A stretch of 63,943 nucleotides of DNA, the filler included, from Reclinomonas americana ATCC 50394 (lineage: Eukaryota), in NCBI GenBank assembly GCA_048213135.1. It is 16 parts of 16 records of this genome, joined end to end, with 100 filler letters (N's around TTAATTAATTAA, not from the genome) between each part and the next. Parts side by side here need not be neighbours in the genome. Positions count along the whole stretch, not along the records: positions 32,929 to 39,049 come from AFZH01018291.1; 15 more parts are not named here. The stretch is one strand, 5' to 3'. The notes beneath the pieces were generated by a model. It made no database searches, had not been told where the DNA came from, and saw only the letters and a list, made by a program, of their open reading frames with translations. The stretch's first letter is position 1. Every line of letters starts with the position of its first letter. The position numbers were made by a program, and so were the translations under genes. Of this stretch, positions 33,380 through 38,723 are shown in pieces.

Positions 33380-36300
33380 ATGGGTGCCGCACAGAATGGA
33401 GCCACTGGGAGTGGAAGGAGGTTTGATTTTTGCTGTAGCTTGGTTTGTTGTTGTCATATGTTGAATGTGTGCGCAATGCTCCTTCTCCACAACAGGAAGC
33501 TAGCATGGGCGATGGCAAGGGATGGCGATGTGAAGGCACTGCGCGAGTTAGTGGCGCGTGAAGGCGCACAGACACTGCTGAAGAGAGAGGAGATGGACGG
33601 GTTTGGCGGCTCCGCATTTCTGTACGCCGCTAGCCGAGGCCGCCTCTCTGTGTTGGAGTATTTGTGGGAGGAAAGTGGTGTCGGGCCACAACTCGCACAA
33701 ATGGTCGCCAACAAAGGCACGACGCCACTGATGGAGGCCGCCGAGGAAGGACATTTGCGCGTGGTGAAATGGCTCTTTGCCGAAGAACGACGATGTCCGC
33801 CGGAGATCGTGCGTGCGGTCATCGGTGGCGGATACTGTTATCCACTGTCCACTGCACTGCATTATGCTGCCCGCAAAGGCCACGAAGCGATTGTGCGACT
33901 CCTCGCCACTCGCTTTCCCGACCTAGTTCCAGCGGTCGACGGGAGGGGCCAGACGGCGGCTCAGCTGGCTCGTGCCGAGGGCAAGCGGCAAGTGGCCAAG
34001 TTCCTCGACCGCATCGCTGCGAAGCAATTAGTACCACCACAGCCTCGGCCGCAGTCACAGCAGTCAACTCCTCGAGGTGAGTATCACCTCAATGTGTTCA
34101 AGCCTAGTGTTGCAAGAAGGAGAAGACGGCACGAGGAGTTGTCTGAAGAGACAACCACTCCACTGTGGGAAGGGAGACAAGCAAAGTCACAAAGAAGGAA
34201 GAGAGAGAGAAATCGGTGCATATTATCACGGAGTTGCATGCACACTCTCTCTTTCTCATTTTCACGCCGCTCATGTCCTCACCTCTCTACTTTGACATCC
34301 GCAGCCGACGCAGGGCAGGAGGTAAGCCTGCATTGCTTTTGTGTGTTGCTCTATCGTCTTTCGCCAACGCTGACTCATGAGCAGACTGTGAATGGGCCTG
34401 CTGTTGACCTACTCCGGCGACAGCTAGAATTACTGCTGCGAAACGAAGCGGCAGGCAGCTGCGACGCAGGGTTTGCGTTGTTTGTGCGTGTTTTTGCATA
34501 ACTTGGCATGGTAGATTGAGTACTTGTGATTGTGCAGCGATCCTCCACGTCGTTCTCGTCAACCGAGGACGAAGGCGTGTGAGATGGCGCGGTATGGCGA
34601 TGTGAAGGCTCTGCGTGAGTTGATGGCGCGTGAAGGCGCACATACACTGCTGAAGAGAGAGGAGATGGACGAGTATCGTCGCTCGGTACTTTACTTTGCC
34701 GCTCGCCAAGGCCATCTCTCAGTGTTGGAATATTTGTGGGAGGAGAGTGGCGTGGGACTACAACTCGCACAAATAGTCGACGACTTTGGCACGACGCCGC
34801 TGATGGCGGCTTCTGGGCATGGGCATCTGCAAGTGGTGGAGTGGTTGCTTGTCGATGAGCGACGATGTCCGCCGGAGATGGTGCGGGCGGTCACCAAGGT
34901 TGACCAGTGGACTGCACTGCATTATGCTGCTGTGGGAGGAAACGAAGCCATTGTGCAACTCATCGCCACTCGCTTCCCCGACCTCATTCCCAAGGTCAAC
35001 AAGTGGGGCAGGACGACAGCTCAGATGGCACGCGGCAGGGCGAAGCACGGAATTGCTGAGTTGCTGAACCACCTCGCTGCGTGGCAACAAGCACTACATC
35101 CACCGCAGACGCAGGAATGGCAGTCTCTTCTTTCTTCTACCCCTCCAGGTGATTATCACTTCCGTGCGTCACGTCGTGTTCAAGCCTAGCATGTTGTCGC
35201 TGACATGTTGACACACCACACACTGAACTCCCCATCTGCAGCAGCCCAGGTGAGAGTGCATTGTTTTTACTGTTAACGTTGTCACTTTGAGTCGCTTCTT
35301 TCTCCATCTCTGACGACTCTGGCTGAAATGCAGTCTGCTGTCGCCATCTCCGATGCCGATCGACTTCAAAGCGAGCTCGACGCAGCGAAACAAGAGCGCA
35401 AGCAGCAGCAACAAGAATGGGAACGGCAGCGACGAGAGCACGAAGGCGCAGTGGCCCAGCTGCATCAGCGCGTTGTTCAGTTGGAGGATAATGCGGTTCT
35501 CCATCAACGAGACGCGGCGGAAGCGGCGCGGGCACTGGCCGAGCAGCAGCAAATATCACGCGCTGCGGAGGAGCGTGCGGCGCGATTGGTGCGAGCCAGG
35601 GCGGTGGTAGCAGAACGAGCAACACAAGCGGAGCAAGCATTAGTTGAGGGACTGCGCGTTTCACGTACTGCTGAGGAGCGCGCGTCGCAGCTGGAACACA
35701 CTAATGCCGAGCTTGAACGGAACTCGCTCGTTGTGGAGCAAGCCAGGGCGGCGGCCGTGGAACGAGCAGCGCAGCTGGAGCGCGCCATTGCCGAGCTTGA
35801 GGGGGACTTGAGGACTGCAGAGCAAGCCAGATTGGCGTCTCTGGAGCGAGCAACACAACTGGAACAAGCGCTGGTCGACGAGCAGCGTAACTCACACACT
35901 GCGGAGCAAGCCAGGGCAGCGGCGGTGGATCAAGTCGCACAGCTGGAAGGCGTCCTTGTGGACGAGCGCGAAAGGTATTCCAGCGCGCAACAACTCAATG
36001 TTGAGCTGCAGCAAAACATCGCCGAAAGGCAGCAACAAACTGCCGACCTCATCGCTGAGCGTGACGAATGGAGGCGCAAGGCGGAGGAGTCCGATCGCCA
36101 GCTTCGCGCCCTCTTTCACATGGATTTTCTCAGGTTCGCCGGCCGTACATCATTGCCTGCGCAATCGCTGTCTGTTGTCTTACTTCACCATCGATTGCAC
36201 AGCGATCGCCGTCCAATCTTGATGCTCACCGAAGTCGTTCACGAAATCATTCCACTGGCCCTCGGCTCACTCCTGCAACATCTCATTGCTGATTTCTTCC

Positions 36301-38723
36301 CTAGCGAATTCGACATTGAGCAACTCTGTCTCCCAGCTCCGCCACCAAGGTGTTGAAGAAGAGCGACTGCTTTGAATGCAGATGTGCCACCTCTGCTCAT
36401 CTTGCCTCCCAGATATTGCCGAATGACTCTGGACAAGCGCGGCAACATTCGCATGCGCTCAGTCGAGTTATTCCCATCCAACCACGTAGCAATCTGCGAG
36501 TTCAAACGGAGTAGAATGACGGCGGGCATGGATGTGTCGCTGCTGAGCACACTGCTGTTGTACATTTCTTTTGTTCCTCTCGCTGCTTGCCGTGATGAAA
36601 ATCTGCTGGAGAGCCGAGTTCGCCTCGACCAAGTCACGAACAAGGACAGACTCGCAGTGCTTTTGCTTACTGACCCCGCCAAGGTAATTCTCTACTCCTG
36701 TGTTGTTTACCTCGTTGGGTGGTCTCATTTGTACTCTGCTTTGCAGATTCGAGCGGTGGAGAACCTGCGAGACGTACGCCACCGCGTGTCTCACCTGGCC
36801 CGCCTCTCTGCATTGGAGGACACAGAGTATGTAAGTGTCATGCGGCTAGTGCGCGACTCGCTCCACACGCTGTTCCCCGATGGACAGCACGAGAGTATCC
36901 GTCTGCTGTTCCAAGCGTACGAGAGTTTCGACTGCACTCACCGTCGTCTGCGTTGACATGTCGTTCTGTGAACTCATCTTTCCGGTGCAGATGTGAGCCG
37001 CATCAATGTGACGGCCGATTTGGTGACGGAGAGAGCAGCCAGATTCGCCATTCGAGCTCCCGTGGTGCCGTACGCTGACTTGGTGACAGCGAGACAAATT
37101 GCCATTGGTATGACTGTGTGCTCCTGTACGAGTGTGCATTGGCCTGCGTGAGTTCACTTTCCTTTCCTTCTTACTGCCAGGTCAAAACGCCGTCTCACAA
37201 GCCACGCTTTATCTCGGAGGTCAGCTTCAGACTGTGGCATACAAGCGGTACTTGGTGAGGAACTCCGGTGACCTGGAGCGTGTTCGCGAGAGCTTCGAGA
37301 ACGAACACTCTCTGCTAATGCAACTGGAGTTGCGTGGTGTTCAAGTGATAGTCACTTTGCTCCCAGAAGTCGCTTACGCGCCAGTGCACAGTCACCCGCA
37401 CATTGTGAAACTGATGGCCATTTGCATTGATGATCCGAGTGGCCTCGGTCTCGTTCTTGAATATGTCGGCCAAGAAGGAGAACGAGGCAACGCCGAGACG
37501 CTGCACGATCTGGTGAGAGACGAGCACGTTCCAACTCATCAACTGCTCTGCCTGCTCGTGCAAGTGGCATCGGCGGTGGTGTACATGCACTCTCGTCGAC
37601 TGGTGCATCGCGATCTGAAGCCACAGAGTTGCGTCAGAGAGTGAGGATGAGGTGGATGGAGACGGAGAGTGGGAGATATCTGTACATGACAGATCAACGA
37701 ATCTGTCGCTCCACCTGCTCTCTGTTCGCAAGGCGGGCTAGAGTGAAGCGGGCACAGAGGATAGGTGTTCGCCAATGTGTGCTGGCTAGCCCAAGCGAGC
37801 ATTTTCGACGTCGTTGTTTGCGATCATTGTACAATGAGGCGGAATGGCAGCAACACACGCGCACAGAGCGAGAGAGAGAGAGAGAGAGAAAGAGAGAGAA
37901 GAAAAATAGCATCGTGAGATATGTGGAATGACAGCCTGCAGAATCCCCGCCTTAGAAATATGAATCTTTCTCGCTGGAGATACTTTTAGGACAGGTCTTC
38001 GCTTGTCAATGAGTGCAGGATCAGCGAGATGATACAAAGAGGACCGAACACTTGCGGAGCTATGTTTTCAAGCCTTTCTTTCCTTGCGGCATCTCTATAG
38101 CTAACCCTTCTCTCTGTTTGTTCGCAGACATTCTCATCAGCGAGGATCGACTCGTCGCCAAGGTGTGCGATTTCGGAGAGGCCAAAATTCACGGCACTCT
38201 CGGAAAGATGCAGTCGAATCATGGCACGGCGGCGTACGCTGCACCCGAGGCCATGCGGGATGATCATGAGGAGGTGCGAAGAGGACTGTCAATCTATTGT
38301 TGTTCAACGAGCGAGGCTCACTCGCCCTTCGTTCGCCACCCGCAGTACGATGAACGAGCGGATGTGTATGGACTCGGCTCACTTCTCTGGTTGATCGCCA
38401 CACGCAAGGAACCATACTCCGGACTGAAACTGCCTGCCATCCTGCGTTGCATGCATGATGGTATCCCACCTGGCAACTTGGACGACGACGCTGTGAGGGC
38501 CACCGTGTCGGAGGACATTCGCAGTCTCATTCGACAGTGCTGGGTTGCGTGCGGTGAAGTGACTTGCGTCAAGAGACAAGCTCTGATTGTGCGTGCAATG
38601 CAGATGCCTCAAGCGACGCGCGTGTCGGCGTCGTATGTGCACGATGTGCTGAAGCGCCTTTGCGAGACCGCAACAACAGAAGGCGAAACGAGTGCGGCGG
38701 CTGCGGCTGGGCCGTCGAAGTGA
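33380..38723 (+). CDS. Ankyrin-ankyrin-coiled coil-putative HEPN-protein kinase (TKL-like) multidomain protein
   Basis: Phase-consistent exon chain: 33380-33420; ANK cassette 33496-34076; ANK cassette 34538-35148; coiled coil 35334-36132; helical domain 36203-36942 with MDVSLL and LRDVRHRVSH; kinase 36991-38723 with VAYK, HPHIVKL, HRDLKPQN, DFG, GTAAYAAPE and DVYGLG. Confidence 0.85.

Follow-up and report, generated by a model that had tools for sequence, protein, structure and literature searches.

A spliced gene of Reclinomonas americana predicted to join ankyrin repeats, a coiled coil, a candidate HEPN-like domain and a kinase

Introduction

Does a protist protein place a candidate RNase of the HEPN superfamily between a coiled coil and a kinase, and could such a protein work along the lines of vertebrate RNase L? 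The question is raised by a gene of Reclinomonas americana ATCC 50394 (GCA_048213135.1), which lies on the AFZH01018291.1 part (positions 32929-39049) of a stretch of DNA of 63,943 nucleotides (nt), referred to here as the window. An earlier note, made from the sequence alone, had proposed that this gene encodes ankyrin repeats, a coiled coil, an HEPN domain and a kinase in one polypeptide, and that the product may be a defence effector analogous to RNase L. The window is composed of 16 contigs of 1.2-9.3 kb joined by 15 linkers, each of which consists of N44, TTAATTAATTAA and N44 (e.g., 32829-32928 and 39050-39149). Because the window is made of joined contigs, features that lie side by side across a linker are not genomic neighbours.

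We found that the four parts are predicted to belong to one spliced gene, and that the likeliest reading of its central domain is a highly divergent DZIP3-type HEPN domain, as suggested by motif layout and by language-model look-alikes. Formal homology tests of the central domain to HEPN were all negative, and the assignment is weighed against them below.

Results

A single predicted gene for ankyrin repeats, coiled coil, central domain and kinase

The gene model comprises 14 exons, in which 13 of 13 introns are bounded by GT-AG and a single frame of 1,281 codons is open from the ATG at 33380 to the stop codon at 38721-38723 (splices predicted; Table 1). The contig that carries it is 6.1 kb long; the organism's introns are short, mostly 60-93 nt, and its G+C content is about 54%. 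That the ankyrin repeats, coiled coil, central domain and kinase are encoded together is a well-supported prediction, since the frame stays open across the chain of GT-AG introns, exons of different parts share frames, exon 11 lacks a start codon, a paralog has the same layout, and the central exons carry a coding signal. A single stop-free frame (35277-36356) spans the coiled coil and the first central exon (exon 8). The other two central exons (9 and 10) lie in a stop-free frame (36357-36956) that is the same frame, the divider being a single TGA inside a 63-nt GT-AG intron. With a codon-usage score derived from the exons for the ankyrin repeats, coiled coil and kinase, the coding log-odds of the central exons are +16 to +19 in the model frame, and below zero in the other frames (for exon 8, +16.1 versus -8.2 and -10.8). 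Exon 11 needs upstream exons because there is no ATG before the kinase start. The order of domains in a single gene, as the earlier note had it, is thus supported by Pfam matches, heptads, frame and paralog, and the central span that it had placed at 36203-36942 corresponds to exons 8-10 of the GT-AG model.

A paralog without the central domain

A paralog of the gene is located on another contig of the window, where it is cut by the contig end (Table 1). It was found by tblastn, where the identity is 59-65% in the ankyrin module and 35% in the coiled coil, and its ankyrin open reading frame (ORF; 60412-61224, minus strand) matches Pfam Ank_2 with an E-value of 1.1e-17. The two genes are alike in their start (MSAAQNAR in the paralog, with the same CACACA context preceding both start codons), ankyrin module, micro-exon, coiled-coil exon start and kinase junction. 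The coiled-coil exon of the paralog starts with TCTGCTG and has no start codon of its own. The paralog differs in having only one ankyrin module, in its intact GxGxxG loop and in lacking the whole central domain: its coiled coil is followed by one intron and then directly by the kinase (RLRKYGWADVVSATESFHRRYKAGEGGQGEVY, glycine loop intact), where the counterpart of exon 11 reads YGWADVVSATESF...GEGGQGEVY. Because the paralog passes from the coiled coil straight to the kinase, the older design appears to be ankyrin-coiled coil-kinase, with exons 8-10 as an inserted module of about 200 amino acids (aa). The central exons have no other match within the 64-kb window. The two genes make up a natural before-and-after pair.

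Motif layout of the central domain

The central domain was queried as single exons, as a 176-aa stretch with one intron retained and as a 246-aa read-through with both introns retained, the intron-coded insertions being 21 aa each. It encodes a DVSLL motif and, further downstream, RHRVSH (Table 1), the latter followed by GTAAGT from position 36831; RHRVSH and GTAAGT are both where the earlier note had reported them. RHRVSH is an Rx4-6H motif with a polar residue (H) directly after R, and it falls inside a helix that a low-confidence model of the 176-aa stretch predicts at residues 113-130. Across the six reading frames of the window (127,882 residues), the pattern D[IVM][ST]L[LM] is found just once, at the DVSLL site, and its combination with an Rx4H motif 20-80 residues downstream arose in 37 of 20,000 protein shuffles.

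For comparison we used four Mytilus HEPN_DZIP3 proteins (P0014, P0015, P0017 and P0019), which surfaced via a search with the ankyrin repeats, match PF18738 with E-values of about 1e-21 and have the architecture HEPN, nSTAND3 NTPase, ankyrin. Their HEPN domains carry ELLYP, FDMTLM, RNVIVH, ED seven residues past the H, and then EF; the central domain carries ELFP, MDVSLL, RHRVSH, ED seven residues past the H, and then x-EY. By inspection, the layout appears to match in order and partly in spacing, so that the DZIP3-type arrangement proposed in the earlier note (an upstream D(I/V)(T/S)LL helix and a downstream amphipathic helix) does resemble that of the four Mytilus domains, in which the helix after the H likewise has an acidic ED..E[FY] start. 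In low-confidence models, the helices from the Rx4H helix onward are predicted at residues 114-127, 135-153 and 161-171 for Mytilus and at 113-130, 136-153 and 160-171 for the central domain, and R and H are at residues 122 and 127 in both model queries; lengths and spacings of these three helices are thus almost equal in the two models.

Language-model look-alikes

A search for look-alikes in the Atlas, which are leads by the tool's own calibration, points to the same families. With the 176-aa query, the top three rows scored 0.92 with 178-180 of 256 features shared, and the 30 matches included an HEPN_DZIP3 set of 12, a DUF4559 set of five and an unnamed set of eight in which Mollusca is the commonest phylum; HEPN_Swt1 came next at 0.87. 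When exon 10 (65 aa) was the query by itself, DUF4559 (0.88, 182 features) and HEPN_DZIP3 (0.86, 184 features) were the named rows that scored best. One Atlas cluster has PF18738 on 38% of its members and DUF4559 on 37%. We take DUF4559 to be the HEPN family of CXorf38. The name DUF4559 does not occur in the HEPN census of Anantharaman et al. (2013; PMC3710099).

Searches and caveats that weigh against an HEPN domain

A substantial body of results weighs against the HEPN assignment. Neither PF18738 (gathering score 27 bits) nor any other HEPN model in Pfam matched the single exons or the 176-aa stretch at E-values up to 1, and the 246-aa read-through matched no Pfam HEPN family at E-values up to 10. 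PADLOC and NCBIfam also gave no match for the central domain, so the HEPN profile match that the earlier note had called for was found in none of these three collections, with exon-wise or intron-retaining queries. A phmmer search against 1.84 billion representative proteins returned no match at E-values up to 0.001, and a word-indexed search at near lengths confirmed none of 176 candidates at E-values up to 10. Direct comparison with the Mytilus domains was no better: a profile of the four HEPN domains scored -0.4 bits on the spliced central domain, hhalign gave a probability of 0.3%, local alignment scores were equalled by 288 and 121 of 500 shuffles, and global alignment scores by 298-916 of 1,000 shuffles. 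The motif evidence has its own weak points. Rx4-6H alone is not above chance (10 occurrences in the 1,281-aa model, three of them Rx4H), the DVSLL and Rx4H pattern was picked after the sequence had been seen, the DVSLL and Rx4H helices are separated by about 22 residues more than in Mytilus, and no relative of the central domain in which R and H could be compared was found in any collection searched. Among the Atlas look-alikes, unnamed viral clusters took ranks 1 and 2 with exon 10 alone (0.91), only three of the ten best named matches shared the family of the top match, and the family was carried by only 10-16% of members in the top named clusters. Finally, all splices are predictions from GT-AG sites, frame and paralog layout, and removal of a possible in-frame 57-nt intron at 36831-36887, which begins at the GTAAGT and has an exon-like base make-up (GC 0.61, T 0.21) and a weak codon score, would take out the helix after Rx4H.

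Other searches of the central domain gave little of any kind. GRIM-19 was the only Pfam family reported for the central exons and the two read-throughs (E-values 0.09-0.18), and phrog_12594 the only PHROGs family (E-value 0.049). Metagenome contigs yielded 77 pattern matches, none of which was confirmed, and PDB sequences yielded no match; the Mytilus HEPN likewise found nothing credible among PDB sequences (best E-value 0.47). When the peptides of the three central exons were entered as individual chains in a complex prediction, the score was 0.01 against a mark of 0.34, which speaks neither for nor against an HEPN domain.

The fold comparison suggested in the earlier note yielded no HEPN match. 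A single-sequence AlphaFold model of the 176-aa stretch had a predicted local distance difference test (pLDDT) score of 47.3, too low for a judgement of the fold; with it, Foldseek found nothing at E-values up to 0.001 (best E-value 0.54, IL-6) and VIA-align found generic helical bundles only. As a control, a true Mytilus DZIP3 HEPN with a four-row alignment reached an AlphaFold pLDDT of 25-47 over the HEPN part. Because a true DZIP3 HEPN also folded badly, the failure for the central domain says little. The profiles have a comparable limit: the four Mytilus domains are 79-91% identical over the HEPN region, which makes their profile close to a single-sequence test, and no broad DZIP3 profile was built because a search with the Mytilus HEPN region returned the same four proteins only. 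We therefore treat the negative profile and fold results as weak evidence.

Ankyrin modules, coiled coil and kinase

The two ankyrin modules are 60-63% identical and look like the outcome of an in-frame partial tandem duplication that comprised the ankyrin repeats, the micro-exon and the start of the coiled coil. Their joining depends on intron 4 (34471-34537), which is 67 nt long and T-rich (T 0.43, GC 0.42). Searched against longer proteins, ankyrin module 2 gave 21 matches, the top-scoring ones at 31-33% identity; four of the 21 are the Mytilus HEPN_DZIP3-nSTAND3-ankyrin proteins, and a kinase family is found in none of them. A metagenome scan with an alignment of the three ankyrin modules returned one locus, at 31% identity. 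The source lineage appears not to be represented in the protein collections searched, as judged from ankyrin relatives that are only 31-33% identical and a central domain without relatives.

The 266-aa stretch encoded by exon 7 is a heptad coiled coil. It contains no proline, 70% of it is A, E, R, Q or L, and its eight strongest self-similarity offsets (28, 56, 77, 49, 35, 21, 105 and 63) are all multiples of 7, which counts as direct evidence.

Exon 12 alone scores 46.2 bits against the Pfam PF00069 cut-off of 31.7, which places it in the kinase family. The kinase retains VAYK, HRDLKPQN, DFG and APE and has a degenerate glycine loop (IAIGQNAV; IGQNAVSQA); the VAxK, HRD-K-N, DFG and IAIGQNAV of the earlier note can all be read in the translation. 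Its closest relatives of solved structure are EGFR, AMPK, CDK6 and Nek7 (E-values 5e-8 to 1e-5), which indicates no specific kinase group. A KEN domain was not found: the last exons match only kinase models in Pfam, and the protein ends about 40 residues past the kinase.

Table 1. Predicted exons of the gene and position of its paralog in the window.
Feature	Position	Strand	Basis
Exon 1, start codon, MGAAQNGATGSGR	33380..33420	+	First in-frame ATG downstream of the stop that precedes 33146
Exon 2, ankyrin module 1	33496..34076	+	Pfam Ank_2, E 1.9e-20
Exon 3, 17-nt micro-exon	34305..34321	+	Frame-preserving GT-AG chain; paralog has a 17-nt micro-exon at the equivalent place
Exon 4, 86 nt, resembles start of coiled-coil exon	34385..34470	+	Frame-preserving GT-AG chain
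Exon 5, ankyrin module 2	34538..35148	+	Pfam Ank_2, E 5.9e-18
Exon 6, 8-nt micro-exon, junction of ankyrin module 2 and coiled coil	35242..35249	+	Inferred: phase 1 + 8 nt keeps frame, GT-AG
Exon 7, 266-aa coiled coil	35334..36133	+	Heptad self-similarity; TCTGCTG exon start as in paralog
Exon 8, central domain part A, helical, ILMLTEVVHEIIPLALGSLLQHLIADFF	36203..36349	+	Same open frame as coiled coil (ORF 35277-36356)
Exon 9, central domain part B, MDVSLLSTLLLYI, with DVSLL at 36531-36545	36413..36683	+	In-frame coding log-odds +19.4; without Pfam match at E of 1 or below
Exon 10, central domain part C, RHRVSH at 36777-36794, then LARLSALEDTEYVSVMRLVRDSLHTLF	36747..36942	+	Exon end may be 36924
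Exon 11, linker and start of kinase N-lobe (VPYADLVTARQIAIG)	36991..37107	+	ORF 36972-37151 without ATG before kinase start
Exon 12, kinase: degenerate glycine loop, VAYK, HRDLKPQ	37181..37627	+	Pkinase, E 5.2e-12, 46.2 bits
Exon 13, kinase, DFG to APE	38128..38273	+	Pkinase, E 1.1e-6
Exon 14, kinase C-lobe, tail, stop codon	38346..38723	+	PK_Tyr_Ser-Thr, E 0.017; Pkinase, E 0.022
Paralog on another contig: ankyrin, micro-exon, coiled coil, kinase	59300..61113	-	tblastn; cut by contig end inside kinase N-lobe

Refinement of the gene model

Exon 12 likely carries an extra in-frame intron of 63 nt (37329-37391), removal of which would restore the kinase motif LMQLDHPHIVKL, and the last exon likely carries another of 60 nt (38544-38603). 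Both candidates share the donor GTTGCG (37329 and 38544) with the modelled 500-nt intron (37628), which lies upstream of exon 13 and contains an (AG)n microsatellite. An alternative donor of exon 10 at 36925 would give an intron of 66 nt, nearer the local norm. With the extra introns and this exon-10 end, the refined model is 1,234 aa long; the protein is therefore predicted to measure about 1,230-1,280 aa, and its N-terminus is possibly myristoylated. The putative site is in the part encoded by exon 1, which fits the simple N-myristoylation pattern G-x-x-x-N.

Several further features of the introns were observed. Besides GTTGCG at one modelled and two probable introns, the unusual donors GTTTG or GTTTC occur at others (33421, 34471 and 36925), and four modelled short introns are exactly 63 nt long. 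Introns 1-3 are stop-free and each is a multiple of three, which leaves the unspliced ORF 33146-34501 open (451 aa from stop to stop, or about 374 codons from the ATG, with the stop codon at 34499-34501). A short ankyrin-only product from the unspliced reading 33380-34501 is possible.

Alternative explanations

The central domain might instead be a lineage-specific helical regulatory or linker domain without nuclease ancestry, with RHRVSH present by chance and the whole protein a scaffolded signalling kinase like its paralog. We consider this unlikely, though it deserves to be taken seriously: DZIP3, DUF4559 and Swt1-type HEPN clusters lead the named families in two Atlas queries, the combination of DVSLL and Rx4H is rare among shuffles, and the H-x7-ED spacing is common to real DZIP3 domains. 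A different possibility accepts the HEPN ancestry and holds that the domain no longer cleaves RNA, serving instead to bind RNA or to dimerise and in this way to position or gate the kinase, which would be the real output. The extreme divergence of the central domain and the retention of VAYK, HRD, DFG and APE in the kinase fit such a role, and in the available part of PMC3710099 some HEPN domains are described as non-catalytic RNA binders and the motif of the DZIP3 family as only 'mostly conserved'. The central domain, however, has both R and H, with a polar H directly after the R, a combination that predicts an active RNase according to the same part of that source, and we regard loss of cleavage as distinctly improbable.

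The remaining two alternatives find even less favour with us. In one, the gene model is an artefact or the gene is decaying, so that ankyrin module 1 (or both modules) would be transcribed separately from the central-kinase part, or the locus would be a pseudogene that is open by chance. The assembly is fragmentary, an ATG at 35328 lies just upstream of the coiled-coil exon, MARYGD in ankyrin module 2 could start a shorter product, and introns 1-3, 9 and 13 are in frame and stop-free, from which several alternative products are possible. Set against this are a frame that is open through 13 GT-AG junctions, a micro-exon layout in common with the paralog (whose coiled-coil exon also has no start codon), a kinase exon 11 that has none either and a coding signal in every central exon, and we judge an artefact highly improbable. 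The other, to which we give the least credence of all, is an executioner of the MLKL type, whose helical bundle would be released on activation and would damage membranes and not RNA. The resemblance to MLKL lies in a helical domain directly N-terminal to a kinase-fold domain with an altered glycine loop, and the putative lipidation of the N-terminus would suit it. The differences are that the kinase here keeps its catalytic motifs and that no HeLo, MLKL or related N-terminal family is matched in Pfam, at E-values up to 1 for the exons and the 176-aa stretch or up to 10 for the 246-aa read-through; HeLo and MLKL families are also absent among the Atlas matches listed.

We thus lean, with some reserve, towards an HEPN-like fold for the central domain. 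The protein is regarded as no more than a probable distant relative of PF18738 and not filed as a member, because the profile test failed.

Other content of the window

Outside the contig of the gene, 98 long ORFs were scanned, of which five have a Pfam match at E-values up to 1e-5 and 93 have none. The five comprise a WD40 propeller (2181-3218, plus strand), a RasGAP (10971-11693, plus strand), a polysaccharide deacetylase (22056-22874, minus strand), a weak leucine-rich repeat match (16729-17379, plus strand) and the ankyrin ORF of the paralog. The region upstream of the paralog is occupied, up to the contig end, by a tandem repeat of about 440 nt (61200-62655) with three to four copies of 60-90% identity; the long plus-strand ORFs that lie over it (61151-62014 and 61809-62654) have no Pfam match. 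Microsatellites of (AG)n or (CT)n are found at 37865-37899, in the long kinase intron of the gene, and at 59378-59411, in the matching region of the paralog contig. Scans of the 64-kb window for Rfam families (at gathering score) and for tRNA genes found neither.

Discussion

The explanation that we put forward, tentatively, is that one spliced gene encodes a protein with ankyrin repeats, a coiled coil, a divergent DZIP3-type HEPN domain with an intact Rx4H motif and a kinase, and that this protein is a pairing-driven RNase with a role in conflict or stress. HEPN RNases, IRE1 and RNase L act as dimers with a composite site. By analogy, the ankyrin modules would bind a partner or signal and the coiled coil would bring at least two chains together; paired HEPN domains could then form a composite RNase site and cut RNA, and the adjacent kinases, their catalytic residues kept, may regulate the RNase or signal in parallel. 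The logic would be that of IRE1 and RNase L, achieved with other components in another arrangement, and the likely role would be in a conflict or stress response. The R and H of the HEPN motif are required for RNase activity, according to the available part of PMC3710099.

That the protein is a working RNase L-like effector seems to us rather doubtful on present evidence. Similarly doubtful in its entirety is the wider evolutionary scenario, in which a protist lineage inserted a DZIP3-type HEPN RNase into an ankyrin-coiled coil-kinase protein, arriving at an independent, differently ordered kinase-coupled HEPN in which pairing through the coiled coil triggers RNA cleavage for defence or suicide. 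Should the HEPN reading fail, a domain of about 200 aa with a clear coding signal and no detectable relative in 1.84 billion proteins would still be of interest.

Should it hold, the protein would be a new architecture made of known domains. Coupling of a kinase fold to an HEPN RNase is, to our knowledge, well studied only in IRE1 and RNase L, in both of which the RNase is a KEN domain that follows the kinase. No description of an ankyrin-HEPN-kinase protein was found in the literature searched, which is not proof of absence. For DZIP3-type HEPN domains, the fusions listed in the 2013 census include no kinase, as far as its available part goes (PMC3710099), and the part available of another source describes HEPN with Death-like, TRADD-N and STAND modules and mentions no kinase (PMC8195603).

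The comparison with RNase L holds in part. Both proteins have N-terminal ankyrin repeats (here matching Ank_2 in two modules) and a kinase-fold domain, and, if the HEPN reading is right, both contain a dimerisation-dependent RNase of the HEPN superfamily with an Rx4-6H motif; the available part of PMC3710099 classes KEN itself as HEPN. The analogy drawn in the earlier note therefore stands for the kinds of domain shared. It does not extend to their arrangement or to the kinase: here there is no KEN and nothing after the kinase, the putative HEPN precedes the kinase, a 266-aa coiled coil is present, and the kinase keeps HRD, DFG and the beta-3 lysine. We see no apparent sequence relationship to RNase L beyond generic domains. 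IRE1 is likewise comparable in having a kinase and an HEPN-type RNase in one chain (here a putative HEPN), both of which oligomerisation could switch, and differs in that the order here is reversed, the HEPN family is another one, and there is no luminal sensor and no membrane span. KEN sits at the C-terminus of the kinase, again as given in the available part of PMC3710099. The lack of KEN and of anything after the kinase, together with the reversed order, places the protein outside the RNase L/IRE1 family, and the analogy amounts to a shared list of domain kinds.

The closest likeness of the central domain is to the DZIP3/hRUL138-type proteins, represented here by the four from Mytilus. It shares with them the motif pattern and spacing of the Rx4H region and the co-occurrence with ankyrin repeats, and these families lead the named language-model look-alikes. 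It differs in the lack of a significant sequence match, in its position (central here, N-terminal there) and in its partner, which is a kinase here and a STAND NTPase, RING, Death or CARD domain there. If the assignment is true, the DZIP3-type HEPN would be extended to a kinase partner, and the protein would represent a second, independent fusion of kinase and HEPN, in which the HEPN is of the DZIP3 type, precedes the kinase and is driven by a coiled coil. The coupling of these two activities, known from IRE1 and RNase L, would then be a recurrent solution.

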